Of a stretch of 64,000 nt of DNA, positions 7,700 through 60,774 are shown piece by piece. The DNA lies in the IMG/VR virus record IMGVR_UViG_2851955134_000009; one strand, 5' to 3'. The first letter of the stretch is position 1. The number at the start of each line of letters is the position of its first letter. Position numbers and translations under genes: made by a program. The DNA comes from a virus. Lineage: Duplodnaviria > Heunggongvirae > Uroviricota > Caudoviricetes. The notes under the pieces are model-generated. The model worked only from the letters and a program-made list of their open reading frames with translations. It did not search any database and had not been told where the DNA came from.

Positions 7700-7702
7700 A
7701 TT

Positions 7703-26949: not shown

Positions 26950-27408
26950 TCAGCGACGGGCCGCTGCTTCAAGATGGCGGACAATGGTATCGAGGATGGG
27001 GACTACCACTTCAGGCTGTAGCTCTCCATCCTCCGTCACCGGCAGGAACGGGCGGGCCGGAAGTTCAACAGACTCATTACGCCCCGTTTTACCCCCGAAC
27101 TGGTGAATGGCACCGTAAACAACGTTGGTCCCCACAACAGCCTGCCGGTCGTCATGCTCGGTTGATACTGACCCCATCAGACGCCCGGTATCCTGCAGTG
27201 TCTGTCCGTTACGTTCTTCCGCTGCCAGCGAGGGCATCCACCCCGGACGCCCCTCATCAAGAAAGTTAAACTGTGTTTCCGCCAGCAGGGTTCCGGCGAT
27301 TTTGCGCATCGCAGGCTCCATGTCTGTGGCAGCCAGATCCAGCGCACGGAGGCTCCGGCGCAGGGATTTATCATTAATGGTGACACTGACCAGGTTATCG
27401 GAAGCCAT
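26950..27408 (-). CDS. virion morphogenesis protein (Mu gpG-like)
   Basis: 152 aa after the F-like gene. Confidence 0.55.
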   Translation of the reverse strand: MASDNLVSVTINDKSLRRSLRALDLAATDMEPAMRKIAGTLLAETQFNFLDEGRPGWMPSLAAEERNGQTLQDTGRLMGSVSTEHDDRQAVVGTNVVYGAIHQFGGKTGRNESVELPARPFLPVTEDGELQPEVVVPILDTIVRHLEAAARR

Positions 27409-27410
27409 TG

Positions 27411-29709: not shown

Positions 29710-31232
29710 CAGAATCCCTCCAGCATACGGGCCGCCTGACGACGACGTCGTGAGCTTGCCTTCACCGGCCCTTTGTTAATTTCACGGCTGGCGAAATACG
29801 CCAGCGCCAGTGCGATGGCTGAATCCCCGTGGCGTTTACCACCATCAGCCTTTGCTTTTGAGCGTTGTTCCGGCACGCGGGGGACACCGTTCACCACCTG
29901 AACGGCCCGCAGGTCATCCAGTGTGTCTTCATCTTTTGGTAAGTCCAGCAGGTTACCGTCTTCCAGTGCAGCTTTGACCGGAGGCATATGCTCCCGGTAC
30001 CAGCCTTCGGTTGGCATCACCTGCTGAACCCGGCTGGAGCCGTAGCGCTGCATGGCGTATTCAGCCAGATAGGCACCATTACCACGGGCATCAAATGCTG
30101 CACCCAGCAGACCGGGCAGGCCATCCATCAGATACCAGGTGATTTGCTCCTGCTGTCTGAACGGCACGTTACGCAGCTCCAGTACGAATGGCACGCGTCG
30201 TACCAGGTTCTTCTCCTGCAGCAGGGGATAGTCCACCGACAAATCACCGCTGCGACCAAAGTCGCGCCCCAGGAAAGAGCGGGCATCAGTGGGGAGTGCC
30301 TCCAGCAAGGGTTTCAGATGCTCATCAAGCCAGTCCTGTGTCTCGTGGAAGCGAACCTCATCAGACAGCAGTTCATAACCTTCCTTGCAGGTCAGACGCA
30401 ATACTGGCGTATCAGCGGACATTCGGGACTCTATCAGGGCACGGGACAGCCAGGCACCGCCACCGTTGGCCGGAATACAGTCAAGCTCTTCGGATGCGCC
30501 GGCACCGTAGAATTTGTACACCGACGCCATCCAGGCCAGCTCGGATGCCTCCGACCATTCCTTCCCGGTGCGCAGACAAACGCGCTGGAACAGCCCCTCA
30601 GATACGGCTTCCCGGAAAGTGATGCGATGTACGCTGCCTCCCTGACGTCCGGCACGGATATCTCCGATAAGCGTACTGAATGGATTGTCGTCACCGTCAT
30701 GGGTGGAGATAACGCGTACCTTGCCCCCCCAGATAAGCATCGCCAGCGCCGCTTTCAGCAGTTCGTCCAGTTGCTCATGGAACGCCGCTTCGTCGATAAC
30801 AATAATACCCTGACGGCCACGCAGGTTAGACGGGCGGCTGGAGAGCGCGACAATGCGAAAGCCGGAGTCAGGAAATTTGATGGTGTAAGTCCTGATGTGT
30901 TTGTCGTCGTCGTCCTCTTCCCAGAATCCTTCTTCAATTTCACTGGCCGCATAGTTGAATGCCCGTGCCCACATCGCACACGCCTGAATGTATTCGACGG
31001 TCATGTCCTGGTTATAAGCGATGTAATACACATTCATCCCGCCTGCTGGCGCAGAAGAGGCGGCGGTCAGTACGTTATCGGATGCCTCAGCCCATGTAAT
31101 ACCGGTACGACGGCTCTTTTCTATCACCTTAAGCGGAGAGGCATCTGCCACCCAGCGCTGCTGGTAGGGCAACAGAACGGGAGGGGCATCATAACCGGAA
31201 GTGTCTGGTATTACCGGCGTGAACTGGCTCAT
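29709..31232 (-). CDS. terminase large subunit
   Basis: 507 aa; Walker A-like region near the N-terminus; followed by the portal gene. Confidence 0.75.
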   Translation of the reverse strand: MSQFTPVIPDTSGYDAPPVLLPYQQRWVADASPLKVIEKSRRTGITWAEASDNVLTAASSAPAGGMNVYYIAYNQDMTVEYIQACAMWARAFNYAASEIEEGFWEEDDDDKHIRTYTIKFPDSGFRIVALSSRPSNLRGRQGIIVIDEAAFHEQLDELLKAALAMLIWGGKVRVISTHDGDDNPFSTLIGDIRAGRQGGSVHRITFREAVSEGLFQRVCLRTGKEWSEASELAWMASVYKFYGAGASEELDCIPANGGGAWLSRALIESRMSADTPVLRLTCKEGYELLSDEVRFHETQDWLDEHLKPLLEALPTDARSFLGRDFGRSGDLSVDYPLLQEKNLVRRVPFVLELRNVPFRQQEQITWYLMDGLPGLLGAAFDARGNGAYLAEYAMQRYGSSRVQQVMPTEGWYREHMPPVKAALEDGNLLDLPKDEDTLDDLRAVQVVNGVPRVPEQRSKAKADGGKRHGDSAIALALAYFASREINKGPVKASSRRRRQAARMLEGF

Positions 31233-46466: not shown

Positions 46467-46510
46467 TATTTATCTCACGGATCCCCCTTCATTTATCTCA
46501 TGTCTGATCA
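46467..46510. repeat. Mu-like element terminal repeat, right-hand copy in window coordinates (putative transposase-binding sites)
   Basis: Reverse complement reads TGATCAGACATGAGATAAATG...GTGAGATAAATAA, matching the end at 8916. Confidence 0.55.
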
Positions 46511-46516
46511 ATTATT
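46511..46516. repeat. ATTATT direct repeat, right copy (putative target-site duplication)
   Basis: Identical to 8910-8915. Confidence 0.6.
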
Positions 46517-46535
46517 GCGTGTCAGGAGCGAAACA

Positions 46536-46967
46536 GTGAACAAACCACAATCCCTGCGCCACGCCCTCAATAAAGCGGTGCCTTATGTCCGCAATAACCC
46601 GGACAAACTGCATCTGTTTGTGGATAACGGTTCGCTGGTTGCCACGGGGGCCAGCTCCATGTCATGGGAGTACCGCTACACCCTGAACGTGGTGATTGAG
46701 GATTTCAGCGGCGACCAGAATCTGCTGATGGCCCCGGTTTTGCTGTGGCTGCGTGATAACCAGCCCGATGCCATCAATAACCCGGCGTTACGGGAAAAGC
46801 TATTCACCTTTGAGGTGGATATTCTGCGCAACGATGTCTGTGATATCAGCCTCAACCTGCAACTGACGGAGCGTGTGCTGGTCAGCACTGACGGCAGTGT
46901 GTCGAGCGTTGAAGCTATAGCGGAACCTGATGAACCTGAAGAAATGTGGACGGTGAAACGTGGCTGA
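46536..46967 (+). CDS. R: tail completion protein (P2 gpR-like)
   Basis: GTG start at 46536 with an AGGAG RBS; the upstream ATG of the track ORF (46500) lies inside the Mu-like terminus. Confidence 0.65.
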   Translation: MNKPQSLRHALNKAVPYVRNNPDKLHLFVDNGSLVATGASSMSWEYRYTLNVVIEDFSGDQNLLMAPVLLWLRDNQPDAINNPALREKLFTFEVDILRNDVCDISLNLQLTERVLVSTDGSVSSVEAIAEPDEPEEMWTVKRG

Positions 46968-47406
46968 ACTGCAGAAAGTGGACGACTGGCTGAGTGCCTT
47001 GCTGGCGAATCTGGAGCCAGCCGCAAGAAGCCGCATGATGCGCCAGCTGGCGCAGGAACTACGCCGGACACAGCAGCAAAATATCAGAATGCAGCGCAAT
47101 CCAGATGGCAGCAGTTATGAACCGCGACGGGTAACAGCACGCAGTAAAAAAGGCCGTATCAAACGTCAGATGTTTGCAAAGCTGCGCACCACAAAATACC
47201 TGAAAACTTCCGCCAGCGCCGACTCTGCCAGCGTGCAGTTTGAAGGCAAGGTGCAGCGCATTGCCCGCGTTCACCATTACGGCCTGCGAGATCGCGTCAG
47301 TCGTAAGGGACCGGAGGTGCGTTACGCAGAGCGTCGCCTTCTGGGTGTAAATGATGATGTTGAGGCAATGACCCGCGACATGATTCTGCAATGGCTGGCG
47401 GGGTGA
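46960..47406 (+). CDS. S: tail completion protein (P2 gpS-like)
   Basis: 148 aa overlapping the R stop, as in P2. Confidence 0.7.
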   Translation: MAELQKVDDWLSALLANLEPAARSRMMRQLAQELRRTQQQNIRMQRNPDGSSYEPRRVTARSKKGRIKRQMFAKLRTTKYLKTSASADSASVQFEGKVQRIARVHHYGLRDRVSRKGPEVRYAERRLLGVNDDVEAMTRDMILQWLAG

Positions 47407-47474
47407 TCTTTGTATCAGCACTGATACAAGTTGCAGCACTGCCGCCTTTCTTCCCCTGATGGCAACCTTTCCCT

Positions 47475-48053
47475 ATGAACGCACAATTAACCGAAATCAT
47501 GCGCCTTATCACCAACCTGATCCGCACAGGGGTAGTCACCGAAGTGGACAGGGAAAACTGGCTTTGCCGGGTGAAAACGGGCGAGCTTGAAACCAACTGG
47601 ATCAGCTGGCTGACGCTGCGTGCCGGGAATGCCCGTACATGGTGGCGACCATCGGAAGGTGAGCAGGTGGTGCTGCTGAGTCTGGGCGGCAATCTGGAAA
47701 CCGCCTTTGCGCTGCCCGCTGTCTATTCGAATCAGTTCGCACCACCGTCGACGTCGGCGGACGCCTGCGTGACAGAACATCCTGACGGTGGCTGGTTTGA
47801 ATACGAACCCGCCACCGGGCGCTGGTATGTCAGGGGCATCAAATCAATGGTCATTGAGGCTGCTGACAACATCACCATGAAAACCAGTGAGTTTGTACTG
47901 GAGGCTGACCGCACGCGCATTAACAGCGAAGTGGTGATCAATGGTGGCGTTACCCAGGGCGGCGGAGCGATGAGTTCTAACGGGATCGTGGTTGATGCGC
48001 ATCAGCATACTGGCGTCCTGAAAGGCGGCGATACAACCGGAGGCCCGGTATGA
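47475..48053 (+). CDS. V: baseplate assembly/spike protein (P2 gpV-like)
   Basis: 192 aa, first gene of the V-W-J-I-H-G cluster. Confidence 0.8.
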   Translation: MNAQLTEIMRLITNLIRTGVVTEVDRENWLCRVKTGELETNWISWLTLRAGNARTWWRPSEGEQVVLLSLGGNLETAFALPAVYSNQFAPPSTSADACVTEHPDGGWFEYEPATGRWYVRGIKSMVIEAADNITMKTSEFVLEADRTRINSEVVINGGVTQGGGAMSSNGIVVDAHQHTGVLKGGDTTGGPV

Positions 48054-48409
48054 CGCTTTATAGCGGGATGAACAATACCAGCGGCAAAGTCATTACTGAT
48101 ATTGATCATCTGCGCCAGTCGGTGCGGGACATTCTGCTGACACCGCAGGGTAGCCGTATTGCCCGCCGGGAATATGGTTCCCTGCTGTCGGCACTGATAG
48201 ATCAGCCACAAAATCCGGCATTACGCCTGCAGGTCATGTCGGCAGTGTATGTGGCGCTGAGTCGCTGGGAGCCACGGTTGACGCTGGATTCCATCACCAT
48301 CAACAGCAATTTTGACGGTTCAATGGTGGTGGAGCTGACCGGGCGGCGGAATAACGGTGTGCCTGTGTCCCTTTCCGTATCAACAGGAGCAGAGAATGGC
48401 AGTGATTGA
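48050..48409 (+). CDS. W: baseplate wedge protein (P2 gpW-like)
   Basis: 119 aa. Confidence 0.8.
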   Translation: MTLYSGMNNTSGKVITDIDHLRQSVRDILLTPQGSRIARREYGSLLSALIDQPQNPALRLQVMSAVYVALSRWEPRLTLDSITINSNFDGSMVVELTGRRNNGVPVSLSVSTGAENGSD

Positions 48410-49304
48410 CCTTTCGCAGTTGCCTGCACCGCAGATTGTGGATGTGCCGGACTTTGAGACGCTGCTTGCCGAACGCAAGGCAGAATTTGTGGCGCTTCAT
48501 CCGAAAGATGAGCAGGAAGCAGTGATCCGCACGCTGGAACTGGAATCTGAACCCGCCACTAAATTGTTGCAGGAGAACGCTTACCGTGAGTTGCTTCTGC
48601 GCCAGCGCATTAACGAAGCCGCGCAGGCGGTGATGGTGGCTTACGCGATGGGCGGCGATCTTGACCAGCTCGCTGCCAACTACAACGTGACACGCCTGAC
48701 GGTGACGCCTGCTGATAATGATGCTGTGCCGCCCGTTGCAGCTGTGATGGAAAGCGATGAAGCGTTGCGCCTGCGTGTGCCTGCAGCCTTTGAAGGGCTT
48801 TCTGTTGCGGGGCCAACTGCAGCTTATGAATTTCATGCCCGAAGCGCCGACGGTCGGGTGGCGGATGCCAGTGCAACCAGCCCGGCACCTGCAGAGGTGG
48901 TGCTGACTGTCCTTAGCCGCGAAGGCGATGGAACTGCAGAAAAAGACCTGCTGGACGTGGTGGAAAAAGCTCTGAACAGTGAGAACGTCCGCCCGGTGGC
49001 TGACCGTCTTACGGTTCGCAGCGCAGAAATCATCCCGTATCGCGTGGAAGCCACCATTTTTCTCTATCCTGGACCGGAAGCAGAGCCGGTAATGGCAGCG
49101 GCAAAAGCCAGCCTGCAGAAGTACATCGCCAGTCAGACGCGTCTTGGTCGGGATATTCGCCGTAGCGCCATCTTTGCCGCCCTGCATGTTGAGGGGGTGC
49201 AGCGTGTGGAGCTGGCTTCTCCTCTGGCGGATGTGGTCCTGAACAAAACACAGGCGGCATCATGTACGCAGTGGAGCGTAACCAACGGAGGAACGGATGA
49301 ATAG
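48396..49304 (+). CDS. J: baseplate protein (P2 gpJ-like)
   Basis: Start at MAVIDL (48396), overlapping the W stop. Confidence 0.8.
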   Translation: MAVIDLSQLPAPQIVDVPDFETLLAERKAEFVALHPKDEQEAVIRTLELESEPATKLLQENAYRELLLRQRINEAAQAVMVAYAMGGDLDQLAANYNVTRLTVTPADNDAVPPVAAVMESDEALRLRVPAAFEGLSVAGPTAAYEFHARSADGRVADASATSPAPAEVVLTVLSREGDGTAEKDLLDVVEKALNSENVRPVADRLTVRSAEIIPYRVEATIFLYPGPEAEPVMAAAKASLQKYIASQTRLGRDIRRSAIFAALHVEGVQRVELASPLADVVLNKTQAASCTQWSVTNGGTDE

Positions 49305-49902
49305 TCTGCTGCCACCGGGTTCAACACCACTGGAGCGCCGACTGGCGCAAACCTGCAGCGGGATTTCTGATCTGCAGGTGCCGCTTCGTGATTTGTGGAA
49401 TCCGGCAACCTGTCCGGTCAGTTTCCTGCCTTATCTCGCCTGGGCGTTCTCTGTGGATCGCTGGGACGAGGGCTGGACAGAAAGCGTCAAGCGCCAGGTG
49501 GTGAAGGATGCTTTTTATATTCATCAGCATAAAGGGACCACCAGTGCCGTGCGGCGGGTGGTGGAGCCGTTCGGATTCCTGATCCGCATTATTGAGTGGT
49601 GGCAGACCGGAGAAACACCGGGCACGTTTCGCCTGGATATCGGCGTGCAGGACCAGGGCATCACTGAAGATACCTATCTGGAACTTGAGCGACTGATAAG
49701 CGATGCCAAACCATGTAGCCGCCACATGATCGGCATGTCCATCAATCTGCAGACCAGCGGCCCGCATTGGGTGGGAGCCGCCAGCTATCTTGGCGAAGAA
49801 ATCACGATCTATCCGTATATCAACGAAACGATTATTTCCGGTGGCACCGCGCATGAAGGCGGGGCGGTCCATGTTATTGACACAATGAGAGTGAATCCAT
49901 GA
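49297..49902 (+). CDS. I: baseplate protein (P2 gpI-like)
   Basis: 201 aa. Confidence 0.75.
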   Translation: MNSLLPPGSTPLERRLAQTCSGISDLQVPLRDLWNPATCPVSFLPYLAWAFSVDRWDEGWTESVKRQVVKDAFYIHQHKGTTSAVRRVVEPFGFLIRIIEWWQTGETPGTFRLDIGVQDQGITEDTYLELERLISDAKPCSRHMIGMSINLQTSGPHWVGAASYLGEEITIYPYINETIISGGTAHEGGAVHVIDTMRVNP

Positions 49903-51257
49903 GCACAAAATTTTATACCCTGCTGACGGATATTGGCGCGGCGAAACTTGCCAGCGCCGCCGCGCTCGGTGTGCCGCTAAAAATTACCCATATGGCGGTG
50001 GGCGATGGCGGTGGAGTATTGCCAACGCCGGACGCAAAGCAGACGGCACTGGTAAATGAGAAACGCCGGGCTGCGCTGAATATGCTTTATATCGACCCGC
50101 AGAACAGCAGCCAGATTATTGCCGAACAGGTGATCCCTGAAAACGAGGGCGGTTGGTGGATACGTGAAGTGGGCCTGTTTGATGAGTCAGGGGCATTGAT
50201 TGCCGTGGGCAACTGCCCGGAAAGCTATAAGCCGCAACTGGCTGAAGGTAGCGGGCGCACTCAGACCGTGCGCATGGTGCTGATTACCAGCAGCACGGAC
50301 AATATCACCCTGAAAATCGACCCTGCTGTAGTGCTGGCAACCCGCAAGTATGTGGATGACAAGGCACTGGAGCTGAAGGTGTACGCGGATGATCAGATGG
50401 CAAAACATCTTGCCGCACCGGACCCGCATTCACAGTACGCGCCAAAAGCCAGCCCGACATTTACCGGAACCCCCAAAGCGCCAACGCCAGCGGCGGGGAA
50501 TAATACCACGCAGGTTGCGACCACTGCGTTTGTACAGGCGGCACTGACGGCCCTTATTAATGGTGCGCCAGCCACGCTGGACACGCTGAAAGAAATAGCC
50601 GCAGCCATTAACAATGATCCGAATTTCAGTACCACCATTAACAATGCGCTGGCACTAAAAGCACCGTTGTCGAGTCCGGCACTCACCGGAACGCCAACAG
50701 CCCCCACGGCGGCGCAGTCGGTCAACAATACACAGATTGCCACTACGGCTTTTGTGAAATCGGCGATTGCAGGAATGGTGGGTTCTGCACCTGCTGCACT
50801 GGATACACTGAACGAACTGGCGGCGGCACTGGGGAATGATCCGAACTTTGCCACGACAATGCTTAATGCGCTGGCAGGTAAACAACCGCTGGACAATACG
50901 CTTACCAATTTGAGTGGAAAGGATGTAGCTGGTCTTCTCACATACCTTGGTTTAAGAGCAAGCGGGCAGTACACCGATAATTTGTTATTTACAGGTCCTG
51001 ATGGTCTTAAGATTCAGGTGTTTCGCCGGACGCTCGCAAATTTGACTACTGTCGGTGTAGTAAATTCTGTGCCAGTGACTTTCCCTGTCCCGTTCCCTGT
51101 TAATTGCTGGGGCGTTTTTTCTACCAAATTAACATGGGTTCAGATAACTAACTCATGCGAGTGGGTAAGCAATACAGGATTTACCGCTCAGGTCATGATG
51201 AATATTGCTGTAAATACAAACACCTCAGACGCTATGTTTTTAGCTATAGGATATTAA
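49899..51257 (+). CDS. H: tail fibre protein (P2 gpH-like)
   Basis: 452 aa; N-terminal part conserved with the Mu-like fibre, C-terminal tip differs beyond the junction peptide (LLTYLGL). Confidence 0.8.
   Translation: MSTKFYTLLTDIGAAKLASAAALGVPLKITHMAVGDGGGVLPTPDAKQTALVNEKRRAALNMLYIDPQNSSQIIAEQVIPENEGGWWIREVGLFDESGALIAVGNCPESYKPQLAEGSGRTQTVRMVLITSSTDNITLKIDPAVVLATRKYVDDKALELKVYADDQMAKHLAAPDPHSQYAPKASPTFTGTPKAPTPAAGNNTTQVATTAFVQAALTALINGAPATLDTLKEIAAAINNDPNFSTTINNALALKAPLSSPALTGTPTAPTAAQSVNNTQIATTAFVKSAIAGMVGSAPAALDTLNELAAALGNDPNFATTMLNALAGKQPLDNTLTNLSGKDVAGLLTYLGLRASGQYTDNLLFTGPDGLKIQVFRRTLANLTTVGVVNSVPVTFPVPFPVNCWGVFSTKLTWVQITNSCEWVSNTGFTAQVMMNIAVNTNTSDAMFLAIGY
50937..50962. other. candidate invertase crossover site inside P2-like H (diverged)
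   Basis: Reverse complement cttgctcttaaaccaaggtatgtgag shares the AAACCAAGG core with the other three sites but is less conserved. Confidence 0.35.
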
Positions 51258-51258
51258 T

Positions 51259-51699
51259 ATGAATCGTTTTGTGTTCAGTCCATCTGAGTCCCGTTTTTAT
51301 GCCATCGAGTGGCAGGCTGATTATGTTGATAATAATTGTTGGCCACATGATGCCATTAACGTTAGTGACAGCATTTATTATGAGTTTTCCGGCACTCCCC
51401 CTACAGGTAAGCAACTTATAACTTTAAATAACATGCCAGCATGGGGTGATATTCCTCCACCTACACGAGAAGAATTAATTGTCGCTGCTGATGTGGAGAA
51501 GCAAAAAAGAATAGATTTAGCCAATGATTACATGAACGGTAAGCAATGGCCTGGTAAAGCAGCTATTGGTCGTCTGAAAGGTGAGGAACTGGCACAATAT
51601 AATTTGTGGCTGGATTATCTGGACGCACTGGAGCTGGTCGATACCGCCAGTGCGCCAGATATTGAATGGCCTACGCCTCCGGCAGTTCAGGCCAGATGA
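51259..51699 (+). CDS. G: tail fibre assembly protein (P2 gpG-like)
   Basis: 146 aa immediately downstream of H. Confidence 0.7.
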   Translation: MNRFVFSPSESRFYAIEWQADYVDNNCWPHDAINVSDSIYYEFSGTPPTGKQLITLNNMPAWGDIPPPTREELIVAADVEKQKRIDLANDYMNGKQWPGKAAIGRLKGEELAQYNLWLDYLDALELVDTASAPDIEWPTPPAVQAR

Positions 51700-52273
51700 C
51701 ATCTGGCGCGGTGCTGGTATCAGTTGCCGTCACCGCGTCAATGTAATCCAGTACAGCGTTAAGGCTGGTTGTTTCTGCCTGCGTCAGTTTACGTCCGGCC
51801 TGCAATTTCAGCTGAATCAGACTGATTGAAGCCATTGCAGTATCAATCAGTGACTGGCGCTGTGCTTCTGCTGCATCTACTGCGGCGCTATGCTGTGCTT
51901 CGGTATCCGTCACCCATTTCTCACCATCCCATTTATCGTATGGCGTTAACGGGGCGATAGTGGTTGTATTATCAGGGTAATCACCCGGAGCTGTGATTTC
52001 TTTTGATTCTCCTGTTTCGGTGCTAAAGACGATTTCACCGCGATGGTCTGGCACATATTCCCATGAGTTAAAATCTACAGATCGGCAGATTGCATAACCA
52101 GCTTTGTATGTGCCAGGGGCATCTAAACAGGAATATGCAGGGATACCGACACCAACGGCAAGATATTCAGTTGATGTGGAAATATATTCCCGTGTTTCGC
52201 CATCATAGTTATAGACGGTAATATTCCCCGCCTTTGTAGCAATAAACTCGCTATTTAATACAGCGTTATCCAT
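51671..52273 (-). CDS. alternative tail fibre assembly protein (inverted cassette)
   Basis: 200 aa, convergent with G; roughly half of its residues match the Mu-like chaperone at 10106-10720 by visual alignment. Confidence 0.7.
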   Translation of the reverse strand: MDNAVLNSEFIATKAGNITVYNYDGETREYISTSTEYLAVGVGIPAYSCLDAPGTYKAGYAICRSVDFNSWEYVPDHRGEIVFSTETGESKEITAPGDYPDNTTTIAPLTPYDKWDGEKWVTDTEAQHSAAVDAAEAQRQSLIDTAMASISLIQLKLQAGRKLTQAETTSLNAVLDYIDAVTATDTSTAPDVIWPELPEA

Positions 52274-52815
52274 TATGCAGCCCTCACGATATAGTTAAAT
52301 GCAATATTCCGTGGACGGGTTTCATTTATCCCATATGCTGTTGTTCTCTGATTCCCGACAAAATATCCATTTGGATTAGAAGATACAGAATAATCATCAA
52401 AATCAAGTGGGCTATCAGCACCCGGCGTCAGGCTTGCAATATATCCTCTTCCCATAACTTCTGATGCTGGTATTTCTTTTGTACGATAATCACTAACTCT
52501 GAAGAGCTGCCCTTGGTGGGTGTGTGATTCCACTCCTCCATTCTGAAGACTTAGCAAGGCACGTACAGCATCAATACCACGCCCGTCATCCCAGCCACGA
52601 ATAAACTCACCACGTAAATCAGGCAATTTATTTGTCGGATAAGCCTTTGCCAGTTCCGGGTATTCTTCAGCAGAAAAAGCGGCACCGTTGCATTTCAGCC
52701 AGCCTGTTGGCGGAGTGGCTGAAGGCCACGGAACAGGCACCCCAACCGGTAATGCAGAGCCTTCTCCCAAACCAACGTTTATGAAAATGCAGAGATAACG
52801 GCTAACTGGCATCAT
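52273..52815 (-). CDS. alternative tail-fibre C-terminal (tip) segment, promoterless in current orientation
   Basis: Contains GLGEGSALPVGVPVPWPSATPPTGW junction peptide and NIAFNYIVRAA C-terminus; homologous to the Mu-like fibre tips. Confidence 0.6.
   Translation of the reverse strand: MMPVSRYLCIFINVGLGEGSALPVGVPVPWPSATPPTGWLKCNGAAFSAEEYPELAKAYPTNKLPDLRGEFIRGWDDGRGIDAVRALLSLQNGGVESHTHQGQLFRVSDYRTKEIPASEVMGRGYIASLTPGADSPLDFDDYSVSSNPNGYFVGNQRTTAYGINETRPRNIAFNYIVRAA
52762..52787. other. invertase crossover site (hix/gix-like) adjacent to the P2-like invertase
   Basis: ttctcccaaaccaacgtttatgaaaa, 26-bp imperfect dyad. Confidence 0.5.
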
Positions 52816-52836
52816 CCCCGGTTTTTATTCAGGGGA

Positions 52837-53409
52837 TTGATCATGCTTATTGGCTATGTACGCGTGTCAACAAATGACCAGAACACCGATTTGCAACGTA
52901 ATGCACTGAACTGCGCGGGATGTGAGCGGATTTTTGAGGACAAAATCAGTGGCACTAAGTCCGACAGACCGGGGCTGAAAAAACTACTCAGGACACTATC
53001 GGCAGGAGACACGCTGGTTGTCTGGAAGCTGGACAGGTTGGGGCGCAGTATGCGGCATCTTGTTACGCTGATAGAAGAGTTGCGCCAGCGTGGTGTGAAT
53101 TTCAGAAGCCTGACTGACAGTATTGATACCAGTACCCCAATGGGCCGTTTCTTTTTTCATGTCATGGGTGCCCTGGCTGAAATGGAACGCGAACTGATAG
53201 TTGAACGTACCAGGGCAGGGCTGGCTGCAGCTCGTGCCAAAGGCAGAGTAGGTGGACGCCGTCCTAAGTTGACCACCGAACAGTGGGCACAGATTGGGCG
53301 TTTACTCGAGGCCGGAGAATCAAGACAGCGTATTGCACTGATTTTTGATGTAGGCGTTTCTACCATTTATAGAAAATTTCCGGCAAATAAGATCAATGAA
53401 TCCCCCTGA
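52837..53409 (+). CDS. serine DNA invertase (Gin/Pin/Hin family)
   Basis: 190 aa, MIMLIGYVRVSTNDQ...; most residues match the Mu-like invertase at 8994-9566 by visual alignment. Confidence 0.85.
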   Translation: MIMLIGYVRVSTNDQNTDLQRNALNCAGCERIFEDKISGTKSDRPGLKKLLRTLSAGDTLVVWKLDRLGRSMRHLVTLIEELRQRGVNFRSLTDSIDTSTPMGRFFFHVMGALAEMERELIVERTRAGLAAARAKGRVGGRRPKLTTEQWAQIGRLLEAGESRQRIALIFDVGVSTIYRKFPANKINESP

Positions 53410-53551
53410 ATCAGCATTATGTTGATTATCCCTGCAAGCAGACAAATACCGTTATTTTGTGTGAATAACGACACAACTGCGCTTAGCTGTTTGTCAGGCA
53501 CAATCACTTCAACATAGGGCGAAGCCTAATCCAATCAGGAGGTTCGCCACT

Positions 53552-54724
53552 ATGGCTCAGGATTACCACCACGGGGTGCGCGTTGTTGAAGTCAACGAAG
53601 GCACCCGATCTATTACCACGGTGAGCACCGCCATCGTGGGTATGGTCTGCACGGGCGATGATGCCGATGCAAAAATGTTTCCTCTTAATAAACCCGTGCT
53701 GATCACTGATGTGCTGACTGCCAGCGGTAAAGCGGGTGAGTCAGGTACTCTGGCCCGTTCGCTGGATGCCATCGCTGACCAGGCAAAACCCGTGACCATT
53801 GTTGTGCGTGTGCCGCAGGGTGAAACGGAAGACGAAACCACGACCAATATCATCGGCGCAGTGACCGCTGAAGGTAAAAAAACAGGTATGAAAGCCCTGT
53901 TATCTGCCCAGTCACAGCTCGGCGTTAAACCGCGCATTCTCGGCGTGCCAGGCCACGACACCAAGGCGGTAGCTACTGAGTTGCTGAGCGTGGCGCAAAG
54001 CCTGCGTGGATTTGCTTACCTGTCAGCGTATGGCTGCAAGACAGTGCAGGAGGCGATCACTTACCGCGAAAACTTCAGCCAGCGCGAAGGGATGCTGATC
54101 TGGCCTGACTTTACTGGCTGGGACACGGTGCTGAATGCCGAAGCAACGGCATATGCCACCGCCCGTGCGCTTGGTCTGCGCGCCAAAATTGACGAGCAGA
54201 CCGGATGGCACAAAAGCCTGTCCAACGTGGGCGTGAACGGTGTCACCGGAATTTCTGCAGATGTGTTCTGGGATCTGCAGGACCCGGCAACCGATGCAGG
54301 TCTGCTGAACCAGAACGACGTCACCACGCTTGTGCGTAAAGACGGTTTCCGCTTCTGGGGTTCCCGCTGCCTGAGTGATGACCCGCTCTTTGCCTTCGAA
54401 AACTACACCCGCACGGCGCAGGTGCTGATGGACACGATGGCAGAAGCACACATGTGGGCGGTGGATAAACCGCTTAACCCGTCGCTGGCCCGCGACATTA
54501 TCGAAGGTATCCGCGCCAAAATGCGCAGCCTGGTCAGTCAGGGCTATCTCATTGGTGGTGATTGCTGGCTGGATGAGTCGGTGAACGACAAAGACACGCT
54601 GAAAGCCGGAAAACTCACCATCGACTACGACTACACGCCAGTGCCGCCACTTGAAAACCTGATGCTGCGTCAGCGCATCACCGATCAGTACCTGGTGAAT
54701 TTCGCCAGCCAGGTCAGCGCGTAA
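53552..54724 (+). CDS. FI: contractile tail sheath protein (P2 gpFI-like)
   Basis: 390 aa followed by the tube gene. Confidence 0.85.
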
Positions 54725-54733
54725 GGGGACAAC

Positions 54734-55249
54734 ATGGCTTTACCACGCAAATTAAAACACCTGAACCTGTTTAACGACGGGAACAACTGGCAGGGGATCG
54801 TTGAGTCGCTGACGCTGCCGAAATTTACCCGCAAATATGAGAAGTATCGCGGCGGCGGAATGCCGGGTGCGGTGGATGTGGATCTGGGGCTTGATGACAG
54901 TGCGCTGGACACAGAATTTTCCATTGGTGGTACTGAATTGCTGCTGTTTAAACAGATGGGTAAAGCCACGGTGGATGGCATCCAGCTGCGCTTTACCGGC
55001 TCTATTCAGCGTGACGATACCGGGGAAGTGCAGGCCGTGGAGCTTGTCGTGCGTGGACGTCACAAAGAAGTGGATTCCGGCGAGTGGAAGACGGGCGAAA
55101 GCAACACGACCAAAGTGACCAGTACCAACAGCTACGCGAAGCTGACCATCAATGGTGAGGTGCTCTATGAAGTGGACCTTATCAACATGGTGGAAATTGT
55201 GGACGGTGTGGACCTGATGGAAGCGCACCGCAACGCCCTCGGCCTCTGA
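54734..55249 (+). CDS. FII: tail tube protein (P2 gpFII-like)
   Basis: 171 aa. Confidence 0.85.
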   Translation: MALPRKLKHLNLFNDGNNWQGIVESLTLPKFTRKYEKYRGGGMPGAVDVDLGLDDSALDTEFSIGGTELLLFKQMGKATVDGIQLRFTGSIQRDDTGEVQAVELVVRGRHKEVDSGEWKTGESNTTKVTSTNSYAKLTINGEVLYEVDLINMVEIVDGVDLMEAHRNALGL

Positions 55250-55303
55250 TATATCTGAACGGCGCGGGATACCGCGCCAGAACCCAATTGACAGGACAGT
55301 AAA

Positions 55304-55606
55304 ATGAGCGATAAGCAGACTGAAAAGACCATTCAACTGGATACCCCCATCAAGCGCGGTAAAACAGAAATCACCGAAATTGTGCTGCGTAAACCGCAGT
55401 CTGGTGCGCTACGCGGTACACGCCTGCAGGCCATTATGGATATGGATGTGAACGCGATGATGACCGTGATCCCCCGCATCTCCAGCCCGGCACTGACTGC
55501 ACAGGAAATTGCAGAGATGGACCCGGCAGATCTCACTGCCATGTCGGTTGAGGTTGTCACTTTTTTGTTGAAGAAGTCGGTGCTTGCCGGTTTACCGACA
55601 GCCTGA
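55304..55606 (+). CDS. E: tail assembly chaperone (P2 gpE-like)
   Basis: 100 aa; contains the slippery heptamer TTTTTTG at 55561-55567. Confidence 0.7.
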   Translation: MSDKQTEKTIQLDTPIKRGKTEITEIVLRKPQSGALRGTRLQAIMDMDVNAMMTVIPRISSPALTAQEIAEMDPADLTAMSVEVVTFLLKKSVLAGLPTA

Positions 55607-55741
55607 CGGTTGACGATCTGGTGGCAGATATCGCCACCATTTTTCACTGGCCGCCATCCGTTACTGACGTTATGCCGCTGACCGAAGTGCTGGAATGGCG
55701 GTATAAAGCGATTCAGAGAAGCGGGGCCAACGATGAGTGAT
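55304..55741 (+). CDS. tail assembly chaperone E+E' (predicted -1 frameshift product)
   Basis: A -1 shift at TTTTTTG (55561-55567) extends translation to the TGA at 55739-55741, overlapping the tape measure start, as in P2. Confidence 0.55.
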
Positions 55742-58700
55742 AACAACCTGCGTCTGCAGGTCATTCTTAATGCGGTTGACAAACTCACCCGCCCATTCCG
55801 TGCTGCACAGGCCAGTTCGAAAGAGCTGGCTGGCGCAATTCAGAATACCAGAAACAGCCTCAAAGAACTGAATAAGCAGGCTGGCAGAATTGATGAGTTT
55901 CGCAAGACGCGCTCGCAACTAGCCATAACAGCCAACAACCTGAACGCAGCCCGCGAAGAGGCGGCAAAACTCGCCACACAATTTGCTGCCACTAACAGGC
56001 CAACCGCCGCGCAGGCAAAGTTATTCAGTCAGGCCAAAACACGAGTACAGGAACTTCAGCAGACCTATAACGGCTTGGTGGGGGCGGTCCAGAGACAACG
56101 TCAGGCACTTAAAGAATCAGGGATTGATACCAGGCAACTCAGTAGTGCCCAGCGAGAACTTAAGAAAAATGCTGAAGAAACAAGGCAGGCACTGGAGGGC
56201 CAGCAAAAAGCACTTAAACGTCTGGGTGAGCAACAGGCACGGATGAACGCTGCCAGAGAACAATACTCAAGACGGCTTGAAGTGCGCGATCGCATCGCAG
56301 GAGCCGGAGCCACTACCACGGCTGCAGGGCTGGCAATGGGTGCGCCAGTGATGGCGGCAGTAAAAAGCTATACCAGCATGGAAGATGCCATGAAAGGTGT
56401 GGCAAAGCAGGTCAATGGTCTGCGTGACGATAATGGCAACCGCACTGCACGTTTTTATGAAATGCAGGATGCCATCAAGGCTGCCAGCGAACAGTTGCCG
56501 ATGGAAAACGGTGCGGTGGACTTCGCTGCACTGGTTGAAGGTGGTGCGCGCATGAACGTCGCAAACCCTGACGACAGCTGGGAAGACCAGAAACGTGACC
56601 TGCTGGCCTTCGCCAGTACGGCAGCAAAGGCGGCAACAGCCTTTGAGCTGCCAGCGGATGAACTGTCAGAAAGTCTGGGGAAAATCGCCCAGCTCTACAA
56701 AATACCTACCCGCAATATTGAACAGCTCGGCGATGCGCTGAACTATCTGGATGATAACGCCATGTCGAAAGGGGCGGACATCATTGATGTGATGCAACGT
56801 CTGGGCGGTGTGGCTGACCGTCTGGATTATCGTAAAGCGGCGGCACTGGGTTCCACCTTTCTGACACTGGGTGCTGCGCCGGAGGTTGCAGCCAGTGCAG
56901 CAAACGCGATGGTGCGTGAATTGTCCATTGCCACCATGCAAAGCAAGAGTTTCTTTGAAGGGATGAATCTGCTGAAACTCAATCCTGAAGTGATTGAAAA
57001 GCAGATGACGAAGGATGCGATGGGAACTATCCAGCGTGTGCTGGAGAAGGTGAACGCACTGCCGCAGGACAAGCGTCTGTCTGCCATGACCATGTTGTTT
57101 GGTAAAGAGTTTGGTGATGATGCAGCGAAACTGGCAAACAACCTTCCGGAACTGCAGCGCCAGCTAAAACTGACAGCGGGCAATGATGCGCTCGGTTCCA
57201 TGCAGAAAGAATCCGACATCAACAAAGACTCACTTTCCGCTCAGTGGTTGCTGGTCAAAACCGGAGCGCAGAACACCTTCAGCAGCCTGGGCGAAACGCT
57301 GCGCCAGCCGCTGATGGATATTCTGTACACGGTGAAAAGCATTACGGGGGCGTTGCGCCGCTGGGTGGAAGCTAACCCGGAACTGACAGGCACACTGATG
57401 AAAGTAGCGGCTGTTGTGGCTGCGGTTACCGTAGGCCTCGGCACCTTAGCGGTGGCGCTGGCTGCAGTGCTGGGGCCGCTGGCAGTGATCCGTCTGGGAT
57501 TCTCTGTGCTGGGTATCAAAACGTTACCTTCCGTTACGGCAGCAGTAACTCGAACCAGCAACGCGTTGTCCTGGCTGGCTGGCGCTCCACTGGCACTGCT
57601 GCGACGCGGGCTTGCTTCATCGGGCAACGCCGCAGGTTTACTTACTGCGCCGTTGTCGTCTTTGCGCCGCACGGCATCACTGACGGGAAATGTCCTGAAA
57701 ACTGTAGCAGGTGCGCCAGTTGCACTTTTGCGGTCTGGATTATCCGGTTTACGTGCTGTTGCTGTGATGTTTATGAATCCTCTGGCGGTACTGCGCGGTG
57801 GACTGGCAGCCGCAGGTGCGGTGCTGCGAGTGCTTGCATCTGGTCCGCTGGCGATGCTGCGCGTTGCCCTGTATGCCATATCTGGTCTGTTAGGTGCTCT
57901 GCTCAGTCCGATAGGTCTTGTGGTTACTGCACTGGCGGGCGTGGCGCTGGTTGTCTGGAAATACTGGCAACCCATTACCGCATTTCTCGGTGGCGTGGTG
58001 GAAGGATTCAAAGCGGCGGCAGGTCCCATCAGTGCAGCGTTTGAACCACTTAAGCCCGTGTTCCAGTGGATTGGCGACAAAGTGCAGGCGCTGTGGGGCT
58101 GGTTTACTGATCTGCTGACGCCTGTTAAGTCGACCTCTGCCGAACTGCAGAGCGCAGCGGCAATGGGGCGACGATTCGGGGAGGCACTGGCGGAAGGGCT
58201 GAATATGGTCATGCATCCGCTGGACTCCCTGAAATCCGGTGTTTCCTGGTTGCTGGATAAACTCGGCATTGTCAGTAAAGAGGCTGCAAAGGCGAAACTG
58301 CCGGAAAGCGTGACGCGTCAGCAACCTGCGACGGTGAATGCAGACGGTAAAGTGATGATGCCATCGGGTGGTTTTCCGTCATGGGGATATGGCTTTGCGG
58401 GGATGTATGACAGCGGCGGCTATATCCCGCGCGGGCAGTTTGGCATCGTCGGTGAAAACGGGCCGGAAATTGTCAACGGCCCGGCAAACGTGACCAGCCG
58501 GAGAAATACCGCTGCACTGGCTGCGGTTGTTGCCGGAATGATGGGCGTTGCTGCCGCGCCTGCAGAGCTTCCACCGTTACATCCTTTGGCACTTCCCGCG
58601 AAAGGCGGCGAAGCGATGGTGAGTCGTGCAGCCACTGTGCCGCCCGTTCAACAGCTTGAGGCACCGACGCAGATCATCATTCAGACGCAGCCAGGACAAA

Positions 58701-58810
58701 GTGCGCAGGATATTGCGCGGGAGGTTGCACGCCAGCTTGATGAACGTGAACGCAGGCTGAAGGCAAAAGCCAGGAGTAACTACAGCGATCAGGGGGGATA
58801 CGAAGCATGA
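55733..58810 (+). CDS. T: tail tape measure protein (P2 gpT-like)
   Basis: 1025 aa, coiled-coil-rich N-terminal half and hydrophobic segments. Confidence 0.85.
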   Translation: MSDNNLRLQVILNAVDKLTRPFRAAQASSKELAGAIQNTRNSLKELNKQAGRIDEFRKTRSQLAITANNLNAAREEAAKLATQFAATNRPTAAQAKLFSQAKTRVQELQQTYNGLVGAVQRQRQALKESGIDTRQLSSAQRELKKNAEETRQALEGQQKALKRLGEQQARMNAAREQYSRRLEVRDRIAGAGATTTAAGLAMGAPVMAAVKSYTSMEDAMKGVAKQVNGLRDDNGNRTARFYEMQDAIKAASEQLPMENGAVDFAALVEGGARMNVANPDDSWEDQKRDLLAFASTAAKAATAFELPADELSESLGKIAQLYKIPTRNIEQLGDALNYLDDNAMSKGADIIDVMQRLGGVADRLDYRKAAALGSTFLTLGAAPEVAASAANAMVRELSIATMQSKSFFEGMNLLKLNPEVIEKQMTKDAMGTIQRVLEKVNALPQDKRLSAMTMLFGKEFGDDAAKLANNLPELQRQLKLTAGNDALGSMQKESDINKDSLSAQWLLVKTGAQNTFSSLGETLRQPLMDILYTVKSITGALRRWVEANPELTGTLMKVAAVVAAVTVGLGTLAVALAAVLGPLAVIRLGFSVLGIKTLPSVTAAVTRTSNALSWLAGAPLALLRRGLASSGNAAGLLTAPLSSLRRTASLTGNVLKTVAGAPVALLRSGLSGLRAVAVMFMNPLAVLRGGLAAAGAVLRVLASGPLAMLRVALYAISGLLGALLSPIGLVVTALAGVALVVWKYWQPITAFLGGVVEGFKAAAGPISAAFEPLKPVFQWIGDKVQALWGWFTDLLTPVKSTSAELQSAAAMGRRFGEALAEGLNMVMHPLDSLKSGVSWLLDKLGIVSKEAAKAKLPESVTRQQPATVNADGKVMMPSGGFPSWGYGFAGMYDSGGYIPRGQFGIVGENGPEIVNGPANVTSRRNTAALAAVVAGMMGVAAAPAELPPLHPLALPAKGGEAMVSRAATVPPVQQLEAPTQIIIQTQPGQSAQDIAREVARQLDERERRLKAKARSNYSDQGGYEA

Positions 58811-59292
58811 TGATGGTGCTGGGATTGTACGTGTTTATGCTGCGCACCGTGCCGTATCAGGAGCTGCAGTATCAACGCAGCTGGCGACATGCGGCAAACA
58901 GCCGGGTAAACCGACGTCCGTCCACGCAGTTTCTGGGACCGGACAACGACATGCTGACGCTTTCCGGTGTTCTTATGCCGGAGATAACAGGTGGCAGGCT
59001 GTCGTTGCTGGCACTGGAGCAGATGGCAGAACAGGGGAAAGCATGGCCCCTGATTGAAGGCAGCGGCACGATTTATGGCATGTATGTGATTGAGGGACTG
59101 AATCAGACTAAAACGGAGTTTTTCCGCGACGGTATGCCGCGCCGGATTGAGTTCACCCTGTCGCTCAAAAGGGTGGATGAATCATTGTCCGATATGTTCG
59201 GTGATCTCAGTGCGCAACTGAATAATCTGCAGGACACGGCAACGTCTGCCTTAAGCGATATCAGTAAAACGGTGGGAGGGCTGCTGTCGTGA
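58807..59292 (+). CDS. U: tail protein (P2 gpU-like)
   Basis: 161 aa. Confidence 0.8.
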   Translation: MMMVLGLYVFMLRTVPYQELQYQRSWRHAANSRVNRRPSTQFLGPDNDMLTLSGVLMPEITGGRLSLLALEQMAEQGKAWPLIEGSGTIYGMYVIEGLNQTKTEFFRDGMPRRIEFTLSLKRVDESLSDMFGDLSAQLNNLQDTATSALSDISKTVGGLLS

Positions 59293-60389
59293 ATTTCAGC
59301 TCTGAACTGCTTAACAAAGGCAACAAAACTCCCGCATTCAGCATCAGTATTGAGGGCAGGGATATCACCACTGTGCTGGATAACCGCCTGATGAGTCTGA
59401 CGCTGACGGATAACCGGGGCTTTGAAGCGGACCAGCTTGATCTGGAGCTGGACGACGCCGATGGAAAAATAGCGCTGCCGCGCCGTGGTGCGGTCATTAC
59501 GCTGGCGCTGGGCTGGAAGGGGCAGCCGCTTTTCCCGAAAGGGGCATTCACGGTGGACGAGATTGAACACACTGGCGCACCGGACCGCCTGACTATCCGG
59601 GCGCGAAGTGCTGATTTTCGGGAAACGCTGAATACCCGCCGTGAAAAGTCGTGGCACAAGACCACTGTCGGGGAAGTGGTGAAGGAAATAGCTGTGCGGC
59701 ACAAACTGAAGATGGCACTGGGTAAAGACCTGTCAGATAAACCCGTGGAACATATAGACCAGACTAATGAGAGTGACGGCAGTTTTCTGATGCGGCTGGC
59801 GCGCCAGTACGGTGCTATTGCGTCGGTGAAAAATGGCAATCTGTTATTCATCCGGCAGGGACAGGGTAAAAGCGCCAGCGGTAAACCACTACCGGTTATC
59901 ACTATCACACGTAAGGACGGCGACAGTCACCGCTTTACCCTGGCAGATCGCGGAGCCTACACGGGCGTAATTGCCAGCTGGTTGCATACCCGCGAACCCG
60001 CGAAGAAAGAAAGCACCACGGTGAAGCGTAAGCGCAGGACTAAGAAGCAGAAGAAAGAGCCGGAAGCGAAGCAGGGCGATTACCTGGTGGGTTCAGATGA
60101 AAACGTGCTGGTACTTAATCGCACTTATGCCAACCGGAGCAACGCTGAACGGGCTGCGAAAATGCAGTGGGAACGCCTGCAACGCGGCGTTGCGTCATTC
60201 TCGCTACAACTGGCGGAAGGGCGGGCAGAACTCTATACGGAAATGCCAGTGAAAGTCAGTGGCTTTAAACAGCCGATAGATGATGCGGAATGGACCATTA
60301 CGACTCTGACACATACCGTCAGCCCGGATAATGGTTTTACGACCAGTCTGGAGCTTGAAGTGAGGATTGATGATTTCAAAATGGAATGA
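59289..60389 (+). CDS. D: tail protein (P2 gpD-like)
   Basis: 366 aa. Confidence 0.85.
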   Translation: MNFSSELLNKGNKTPAFSISIEGRDITTVLDNRLMSLTLTDNRGFEADQLDLELDDADGKIALPRRGAVITLALGWKGQPLFPKGAFTVDEIEHTGAPDRLTIRARSADFRETLNTRREKSWHKTTVGEVVKEIAVRHKLKMALGKDLSDKPVEHIDQTNESDGSFLMRLARQYGAIASVKNGNLLFIRQGQGKSASGKPLPVITITRKDGDSHRFTLADRGAYTGVIASWLHTREPAKKESTTVKRKRRTKKQKKEPEAKQGDYLVGSDENVLVLNRTYANRSNAERAAKMQWERLQRGVASFSLQLAEGRAELYTEMPVKVSGFKQPIDDAEWTITTLTHTVSPDNGFTTSLELEVRIDDFKME

Positions 60390-60479
60390 TTCTTCGCAAT
60401 GGAGAACTTTTAAGTTTGCAAAATGGAATAATGCGGTATCATTATTGTGAATTTAGCAAAAATGGGGAGAACTCGAAAA

Positions 60480-60698
60480 ATGATGATTTGCCCACTGTGT
60501 GGAAGTGCCGCCCATACTCGCAGCAGTTTTCAGGTATCTTCATTGACCAAAGAGCGTTACAACCAGTGCCAGAACATTAACTGCAGCCATACTTTTGTTA
60601 CCCATGAAACTTTTGTTCGTTCGATTGCAACGCCAAAAGAGTCAAATCCGGTTCAGCCGCATCCAATGAAATCAGGACAGGTGGCGCTCTCTCTTTGA
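60480..60698 (+). CDS. ogr: Ogr/Delta-type zinc-finger late-gene activator
   Basis: Start at MMICPLCG; CxxC...C...C zinc-finger pattern (CPLCGSAAH...CQNINCSH); last phage gene before the host flank. Confidence 0.8.
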   Translation: MMICPLCGSAAHTRSSFQVSSLTKERYNQCQNINCSHTFVTHETFVRSIATPKESNPVQPHPMKSGQVALSL

Positions 60699-60774
60699 CT
60701 CTGCCGCCAATTTGTCGCCATCGTTAAAAAGCACTGCTTCTAACATCATGATTTTAAAAGGCATAAATTTTAGG

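Follow-up and report, generated by a model that had tools for sequence, protein, structure and literature searches.

Why should a P2-like prophage carry, just downstream of its tail-fibre genes, a second fibre tip and a second chaperone that face the other way, together with an invertase of its own, and is this arrangement still a working device? Tail-fibre inversion switches govern the range of bacteria open to attack by a temperate phage or by a tailocin descended from one. For the locus considered here, which lies in a 64,000-nucleotide stretch of viral DNA (the window, throughout) from Escherichia coli strain AR_0085, our answer, held at a probability of about 0.9, is that it is a functional DNA-inversion switch of the Gin/Pin family, of the type of the e14 P segment, which a P2-like (Peduoviridae) prophage carries within its tail-fibre operon. 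Tail-fibre tip inversion switches of the Gin/Pin type in P2-like prophages are already known, so the locus teaches nothing new in principle and is a well-preserved case of a module present in about one-eighth of complete E. coli genomes.

The setting is a P2-like tail module in the order R S V W J I H G, followed by FI FII E E' T U D ogr; this order, made up of P2-family proteins, comes from comparing the RefSeq annotation of the window with the P2 record. Judged against the same reference record, the cassette occupies the position of fun(Z) in P2, between G and the pF promoter/FI. A TGT-N12-ACA dyad upstream of FI (53458–53475, plus strand), read directly from the sequence, has a matching “activator binding site” in the P2 record; with the F operon starting here, the dyad bounds the Z/fun slot on the right. 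The earlier note had placed an alternative chaperone, an alternative tip and a Gin/Pin-like invertase in this slot, and there they are, every gene present within a P2-like tail module.

On the plus strand, the tail-fibre gene H (49899–51257; an ORF that RefSeq calls “phage tail protein”) begins with a constant N-terminal part of 350 codons (49899–50948) that ends at a crossover core and whose residues 1–150 are a Phage_tail_fib domain (PF12571). It closes with the tip in current expression, 102 aa of the Gp53-like_C type (50949–51257; PF21882), and is followed by G (51259–51699, plus), the TfaP-like tail fibre assembly protein that serves as chaperone of this tip. Convergent with G is the alternative chaperone (51671–52273, minus), TfaE-like and named tfaE by RefSeq; the two chaperones share a Caudo_TAP domain (PF02413), and their genes overlap at the 3' ends by 29 bp. 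Behind the alternative chaperone, the ORF list has a frame at 52273–52815 (minus), within which the alternative tip proper, 166 aa with a Collar domain (PF07484), spans 52273–52773. Annotated as a “tail fiber protein,” this frame lacks a promoter and is no gene in its own right; it supplies H with another 3' end and is joined to the constant part only once the segment is inverted. Last comes the serine invertase, 188 aa (52843–53409, plus; PF00239 and PF02796); its ORF does open at 52837, where the earlier note began the gene, and both RefSeq and the alignment with Gin put the start at the ATG at 52843. A scan of 50800–53600 for sigma-70 promoters and terminators returned about as many hits as expected from shuffling and yielded no informative signal.

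Where, then, would such an enzyme act? Two 26-bp crossover sites bound the segment, one inside H at 50935–50960 (TTCTCACATACC TT GGTTTAAGAGCA, core TT at 50947–50948) and one next to the invertase at 52762–52787 (TTCTCCCAAACC AA CGTTTATGAAAA, core at 52774–52775); they face in opposite directions and have the central dinucleotide TT in common. That a site lies within H had been proposed before, at 50937–50962, a placement off by 2 bp. Against the consensus of invertase sites, the H site scores 16/18, equal to the gix sites of Mu, and its partner scores 17/18; the latter has counterparts identical at 26/26 positions in e14, beside pinE, and in the P2-like phage pro483. At 16/18 or better, the window holds two sites, both in the cassette, and 40 simulated sequences hold none; at 15/18 or better, it holds three, against a simulated mean of 0.025. 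With observed counts so far above the simulated ones, the cassette sites are not chance matches (the same scan, as a control, recovered the annotated boundaries of the Mu G segment).

Inverting the segment in silico joins the alternative Collar tip, in frame, to the end of the H constant part, giving an intact ORF of 516 aa, and the same fused gene, 1551 bp long, is annotated in ZH49, CE10 and FDAARGOS_1287. In these three genomes, the predicted flipped junction is found exactly, at 800 of 800 bp; at a coverage of at least 80%, 14 genomes carry the flipped junction and 8 the unflipped one. The cleanest comparisons come from near relatives: the 7.8-kb loci of the sister isolates ZH48 and ZH49 differ solely by an exact reverse complement of 1815 bp, and SW07163 and SW071611 differ, over 9 kb, solely by an exact inversion of 1845 bp. 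That is, both orientations are present in near-identical prophages, with the exchange falling inside the sites. In its flipped state, ZH49 also has an annotated stand-alone Gp53-like ORF of 115 aa. Elsewhere, an inversion of ~1.8 kb in P2-like prophages of EPEC was demonstrated by sequencing and PCR (PMC4272514), and a qPCR study measured how far the e14 P segment inverts (PMC12529663). AR_0085 is represented by a single assembly, and the evidence for both orientations comes from the near-identical prophages of other strains; we infer from these sequences that the switch is active in AR_0085 itself. One practical corollary is that assemblies of a single strain may legitimately differ at the cassette.

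Might the cassette instead be a partly fixed relic, with a decayed site in H, the Gp53-like tip locked in place, and the other tip, chaperone and invertase left as remnants? The earlier note leaned this way, and there is something to it: the right, variable-side half of the H site (GGTTTAAGAGCA) mismatches its partner at 3 positions, and the pair matches at 19/26 positions, compared with 21/26 for the pairs of e14 and pro483, a weaker match that, to judge from the sequences, might lower the rate of inversion. However, a site scoring 16/18 does as well as those of Mu, all cassette ORFs in the window are intact, and the very same sites occur in both orientations in sister isolates without other differences: both sites of the window are 26/26 identical to those of ZH48, which are also those of ZH49, and the invertases of the window and ZH48 are one residue apart (I184S). 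Partial fixation is already contradicted by these observations, and we give it very little credence.

From the observed genes, sites, in-frame fusion and pair of orientations, the working of a functional switch can be proposed as follows. Transcription of the late V operon would pass through the constant part of H into the ~1.83-kb invertible segment, so that, in the present orientation, H would end with the 102-aa Gp53-like tip, and the TfaP-like chaperone G would follow. The serine invertase, whose gene lies immediately beyond the segment, would pair the sites at 50935–50960 and 52762–52787, probably with the help of an enhancer that binds Fis and lies within the 5' portion of the invertase gene; the enzyme would cut at the central TT and, by strand rotation, invert the segment, after which H would end with the 166-aa Collar-domain tip, followed by the TfaE-like chaperone. 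Because inversion gives H two endings, a population of lysogens would be expected to yield virions with either of two alternative receptor-binding tips, and the change of tip would presumably change the host range.

The enzyme looks equal to this task. It has a catalytic Ser9 within GYVRVSTNDQ, a C-terminal helix-turn-helix, and Resolvase and HTH_7 domains in Pfam; against the Gin structures 3UJ3 and 4M6F, it gives E 1e-92, and an alignment with Gin 4M6F spans residues 1–184 with Ser9 conserved (E 3e-91). On these alignments, it is a full-length Gin homologue, 86.7% identical to PinE, 74.6% to Gin and 76.6% to the invertase (8994–9566) of the Mu-like prophage that shares the window. (NCBIfam, searched with five proteins, returned no specific family, only sub-threshold serine-recombinase matches.) Switches of this family depend on Fis, on negatively supercoiled DNA and on a cis-acting enhancer with two Fis sites inside the invertase gene, and the same may hold here. 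A candidate Fis-dependent recombinational enhancer can be placed, by position alone, at 52888–52950, which aligns with positions 46–108 of Mu gin; the aligned region is conserved, but coding constraint confounds that conservation. Mu gin 46–108 holds two G-N13-C 15-mers, separated by 48 bp and roughly 120 bp distant from the site; the two candidate 15-mers of the window, found in a scan of five invertase genes with a simple Fis motif, end in T rather than C, so that G-N13-C is satisfied on one side of each. The geometry of the candidate agrees with that of the Hin enhancer, which lies ~100 bp from its crossover site (PMC3798978).

Among known systems, the closest is the P segment of e14 in E. 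coli K-12 (stfP-tfaP/tfaE-stfE/pinE), with which the window shares an identical gene order—constant part, Gp53-like tip, TfaP, convergent TfaE, Collar tip, pin—and nearly identical gene lengths. Both set a Gp53-like tip and a TfaP-type chaperone opposite a Collar tip and a TfaE-type chaperone; tfaP and tfaE overlap in e14 by 29 bp, as the chaperone genes do in the window, and the segments measure 1797 bp and about 1825 bp, respectively. Identities to e14 reach 90.5% for TfaE, 86.7% for PinE and 55% for TfaP (that is, G). The two differ in context and in the parts that matter for binding: the window has an entire P2-type tail module (V W J I H ... FI FII E T U D ogr) around its cassette, whereas e14 is a degraded element, and the receptor-binding C-terminal parts of both tips are unlike those of e14, with StfE 58.5% identical overall and no BLAST match between the Gp53-like tip of the window and the StfP tip.

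Nor is the slot peculiar to this prophage. Phage pro483 has the same architecture in the same slot, an annotated “DNA invertase” beside the tail sheath, and a G protein 60.5% identical; “DNA invertase/tail sheath” is likewise annotated between G and FI in Fels-2 (an example that rests on its database record), 500465-1, Cartapus, SEN8 and ENT90. The earlier note had pointed to P2-like phages with a fibre cassette in place of Z/fun as a comparison worth making, and they are found both among many deposited phages and in E. coli, where 673 of 5426 complete genomes contain the invertase-sheath junction; the invertase cassette has been noted to fill the Z/fun hotspot frequently (bioRxiv 10.1101/2024.10.15.618418). 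These P2-like relatives differ from the window by alleles only, that is, by which pair of tips they carry. A prophage of EPEC E2348/69 goes further, with three sites and four variants against the two sites and two variants of the window.

Other systems are more distant. As in the window, the 26-bp sites of the Mu G segment fall where the constant part of the fibre gene gives way to the variable part, an alternative tip and chaperone lie on the opposite strand, and the invertase is encoded immediately outside the segment. However, the variable parts of Mu are ~1 kb each, its gix core is GA/TC rather than TT/AA, the gene order of its tail module is unlike that of the window, and the tips and chaperones of the window have no BLAST match to Mu S, S', U or U' at E <1e-3; we rejected membership in the Mu G segment, as the invertase alone is homologous to Mu. 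An R64-type or other multi-site shufflon, with an Rci tyrosine recombinase and multiple sfx repeats, was set aside because the enzyme here is a serine recombinase and the cassette has two sites only. P2 itself shares the operon order, and its H is 53% identical to the N-terminal part of the window H over ~330 aa; at its constant/variable boundary, P2 H even retains a relic gix-like sequence (TTATCGAATATCTCGGTTTACAGGAA, 14/18). Yet P2 lacks an invertase and an alternative cassette and has fun(Z) in the slot, and its tip and G, which are of different types, have no BLAST match to the tips and chaperones of the window. The assumption that canonical P2 H has a Collar-type tip was dropped, the P2 tip being different and the P2 site only a relic.

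From where did the second tip come? The earlier note observed that the alternative tip and chaperone resemble the genes of the co-resident Mu-like prophage far more than they resemble H and G, and the pairwise alignments agree: each Mu-like tip shares 50% identity with the alternative tip (E 1e-49 to 1e-52), and the alternative and Mu-like chaperones share 59%, whereas the expressed H tip has no similarity to the Mu-like Collar-type tips and G aligns with the chaperones only in part, at 31–36%. With the invertases 77% identical and the junction DNA almost identical, one could imagine that the pair was recently taken from, or exchanged with, the Mu-like prophage. The special kinship that the note saw did not survive wider comparison, however, for e14 and pro483 are far closer (chaperone 90.5% and invertase 86.7% identical to those of e14, tip 58–63% identical to the counterparts in both). 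The tip family embraces 1161 phage records at 50–62% identity, and unrelated phages, such as HK97 (stf, 56.8%; compare pro483, 61%), are as near as the Mu-like tips or nearer; the junction peptide GLGEGSALPVG is generic; and in 5426 genomes searched in both directions, no chimeric junction, whether of the H constant part with a Mu-like tip or of the Mu-like constant part with an H tip, occurs at a coverage of at least 80%. At the present level of divergence, recent exchange is already contradicted, and we regard it as the least credible of the readings considered; on these alignments, the resemblance to the Mu-like genes is one of family only.

A different doubt concerns not whether the switch works but what it is for. 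The Mu-like prophage is a 37.6-kb insertion, with target duplication, in lysC, just upstream of R, and it splits the P2-like prophage of AR_0085, which is probably no longer viable as a phage; the switch may therefore lack consequence for any phage in this strain. Could it be biochemically sound and yet have an output other than phage host range, either neutral or co-opted by the host? Were it co-opted, a free tip protein might block the adsorption of other phages, by analogy with StfE2 of e14, for which such a block has been reported and whose segment was recently linked to host defence against phage T2 (PMC12529663). The disruption through lysC fits this idea, as does the 115-aa ORF of flipped ZH49, a counterpart of StfE2. 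Against it, the lack of detectable BLAST similarity between the Gp53-like tip and the StfP tip means that an anti-T2 role cannot be carried over to this tip on grounds of homology. We consider an output of this kind unlikely, if by no means fanciful, and prefer the functional switch of phage fibre tips.

Two fibre-inversion systems in one window invite a last question. All four of their sites have the core TT in reading direction, and the Mu-like S site (about 11224–11249, minus) is inverted relative to the H site of the P2-like prophage (plus), so that an invertase could occasionally recombine the two; if it did, ~39.7 kb would be inverted, and tips and chaperones would be swapped between the Mu-like and P2-like fibres. 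It is tempting, and at this stage rather speculative, to suppose that invertase sites serve as portable hotspots at which co-resident prophages recombine, reshuffling their receptor-binding modules and the order of the chromosome.

Recombination of this kind between prophages does occur, as E. coli FDAARGOS_1287 shows. There, a P2-like prophage with the same cassette and an e14-like prophage beside it have recombined with each other, the exchange lying exactly at the 26-bp sites. Our initial placement of the reciprocal junction ~330 kb away, which assumed the ybjL and icd attachment sites, was wrong; the prophages are neighbours, and the junction is 45 kb away. The outcome is a 45-kb inversion with two new loci, one in which two fibre constant parts face each other across a single invertible segment that they have in common, and the other with two invertases and no constant part.

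The fibre cassette of the P2-like prophage is a real inversion system, and it is one that was already known. All of the open reading frames listed in the earlier note are found in the window: the tail-fibre gene H (49899-51257, plus strand; Phage_tail_fib and Gp53-like_C in Pfam), its chaperone gene G (51259-51699, plus; Caudo_TAP), a convergent, alternative chaperone gene (51671-52273, minus; Caudo_TAP), an alternative tip (52273-52815, minus; Collar) and an invertase gene (Resolvase and HTH_7), which starts at TTG 52837 in a mechanical ORF call and at ATG 52843 by RefSeq and by alignment to Gin. The claim that they sit where P2 carries Z/fun also holds, in that fun(Z) follows G and precedes the pF promoter/FI in the P2 reference record; in the window, a TGT-N12-ACA dyad (53458-53475) marks where the F operon begins. 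The P2-like phage pro483 has these five genes in the same arrangement, one of them annotated "DNA invertase," and the invertase-sheath junction recurs in Fels-2, SEN8, Cartapus, 500465-1, KP12, ENT90 and others, as well as in 673 of 5426 complete Escherichia coli genomes. Goldberg et al. (2014; PMC4272514) showed inversions of ~1.8 kb by sequencing and PCR in two EPEC P2-like prophages and, by the same means, inversion in an EPEC Mu prophage; Egorov and Atkinson (bioRxiv 10.1101/2024.10.15.618418) noted that a DNA invertase, together with inversion of the neighbouring genes, is often seen in the P2 Z/fun hotspot.

Where, then, would the cassette cross over? We scanned the 64-kb window with the consensus TTNTCNNAAACC-NN-GGTTTNNGANAA, scored out of 18, which recovers both annotated boundaries of the Mu G segment and two sites in the E. 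coli K-12 element e14. The site inside H (50935-50960) scores 16/18 and the invertase-proximal site (52762-52787) scores 17/18, set against a mean of 0.025 sites at 15/18 or better, and none at 16/18 or better, in 40 simulated sequences. The two are mutually inverted and have the core TT in common, and exchange at this core would, in silico, join H codon 350 in frame to the alternative tip (...LLTYL|GLGEGSALPVG...), giving a predicted intact protein of 516 amino acids. Canonical P2 H keeps a relic gix-like sequence, TTATCGAATATCTCGGTTTACAGGAA (14/18; positions 1358-1383 of our P2 locus, L012), which falls at the constant/variable boundary (EYLGLQ) of a phage that has no invertase.

Both orientations exist in nature. 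A flipped-junction query built from the prediction (400 bp from the H constant part joined to 400 bp from the alternative tip, reverse-complemented) was matched at 800 of 800 positions in CE10, FDAARGOS_1287 and ZH49, and at 80% coverage or more, the flipped junction occurs in 14 genomes vs. 8 for the unflipped one. Over 7.8 kb, the only difference between the pig isolates ZH48 and ZH49 is an exact reverse complement of 1815 bp, with zero mismatches, equivalent to window 50954-52768; an exact 1845-bp inversion is likewise all that separates SW07163 from SW071611 over 9 kb. It had been suggested that the site in H is too diverged and the cassette partly fixed. For this allele, we reject that reading, because these exact inversions occur in near-identical prophages and both window sites are the same as those of ZH48 at 26 of 26 positions, the invertases being one C-terminal residue apart (I184S). 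AR_0085 itself is represented by a single assembly, and the evidence of inversion comes from the near-identical prophages of other strains.

The invertase is a full-length homologue of Gin (74.6% identity, Ser9 present; E 1e-92 against structures 3UJ3 and 4M6F). By homology with Gin, Hin and Pin (PMC3798978), its dimers would bind both 26-bp sites, synapse with a Fis-bound enhancer and make double-strand cuts at the central dinucleotide, after which the subunits would rotate by 180 degrees. We infer a candidate enhancer within the invertase gene: a segment some 120 bp from the site, corresponding in the alignment to Mu gin positions 46-108, is conserved, but it matches a simple Fis motif only by half.

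To what is the alternative tip related? The earlier note likened it and its chaperone to the genes of the Mu-like prophage, and in substance this is correct: in pairwise BLAST, identity is 50% between the tip and each of the two Mu-like tips (E 1e-49 to 1e-52), 59% between the chaperone and its Mu-like counterpart, and 77% between the two invertases, whereas the same search found no similarity between the current H tip and the Mu-like tips and only a partial match (31-36%) of G to the chaperones. The likeness is one of family only. At 50-62% identity, the Collar-type tip has counterparts in 1161 phage records, including pro483, the lambdoid phages HK97 and HK106, and P1-like and Klebsiella phages. 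The closest relatives are e14 (TfaE 90.5%, PinE 86.7% and StfE 58.5% identical to their counterparts) and pro483 (chaperone 90.5%, tip 63%), both with an invertase-proximal site identical to that of the cassette at 26 of 26 positions. e14 shares the layout of the cassette, even to the 29 bp by which the convergent chaperone genes overlap, and its StfP tip is likewise Gp53-like, ending in AIGY; inversion of its P segment has been quantified and linked to defence against phage T2 (Kirigo et al. 2025; PMC12529663). Of the two findings named beforehand as telling against the proposal, one stands, the junction being generic and the two prophages no closer kin, but the other, a nonfunctional site in H, does not.

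Recombination between prophages does occur. FDAARGOS_1287 (NZ_CP070071.1, about 85.0-130.3 kb) carries the window cassette flipped, at 99.95% identity, and what comes after it is not invertase and sheath but the reversed stfP constant part, ymfQ and J of an e14-like prophage, through a precise hybrid site, CTCTCGAAAACC-TT-GGTTTAAGAGCA. The reciprocal joint, 45 kb off, places the reversed P2-like ogr-to-invertase arm beside a second tip segment and pinE. This is a 45-kb site-specific inversion between two neighbouring prophages (28202-30054 of locus L016 and 26309-28259 of locus L017, both from this genome), in which the P2-like invertase-proximal site recombined with the StfP-internal site of the e14-like neighbour; it left one locus with two facing fibre constant parts and one invertible segment in common, and another whose segment, flanked by two invertases, has no constant part. 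In five other E. coli genomes (H1827/12, GPEC1035, GPEC1209, GPEC1210 and Z1323PEC0011; our matches H175-H179), an e14-like StfP constant part is joined, at 97.5-97.9% identity, to the Gp53-like tip and G chaperone of the window type, and therefore, the module moves between e14-like and P2-like phages. Among the 5426 genomes, none was found to join the Mu-like cassette of the window to its P2-like one.

The window matches E. coli AR_0085 (NZ_CP029741.1, 4175441-4239440) at 100% identity; there, a Mu-like transposable prophage (about 8916-46510) splits the P2-like prophage into portal to lysB (1440-8839) and R, S, V, W, J, I, H, G ... FI, FII, E, T, U, D and ogr (46500-60700, adjoining ybjL). 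The insertion lies in lysC, directly upstream of R; against the uninterrupted ZH48 prophage, it shows a target duplication of 5-6 bp, ATTAT(T), and termini TGAT...ATCA with GATAAATG motifs repeated at both ends. The late genes of the Mu-like prophage are read from the minus strand; the plus strand carries the early ones (DDE transposase, Gam, gp16/GemA-like, Mor). The P2-like prophage of AR_0085 is probably no longer packageable. A gene of low GC (0.33; 1-1374) with the annotation "ATP-binding protein" immediately precedes the portal gene, at the P2 old/tin hotspot, and is possibly a defence gene.

The Mu-like fibre region (8994-12489) has an invertase (8994-9566, minus), an alternative Collar tip (9638-10099, plus), a single chaperone (10106-10720, minus) and a fibre gene (10720-12483, minus). 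There is no second chaperone in this region, and the alternative tip, if it can be assembled, may use one supplied in trans. The S site (11224-11249) scores 15/18, and the outer half of the invertase-proximal site (about 9621-9646) is a poor match to the consensus. The four window sites (9621-9646, 11224-11249, 50935-50960 and 52762-52787) all have the core TT, read from constant part to tip. The Mu S site is inverted with respect to the P2 H site, and the two invertase-proximal sites are inverted with respect to each other; since each pair has the same core, inversions of 39.7 and 43.1 kb between the window's prophages are formally possible; none was seen in databases. Within the Mu-like fibre gene (10720-12489), a unit of about 300 bp (about 100 amino acids) recurs in near-perfect tandem, seen as six Phage_fiber_2 repeats.
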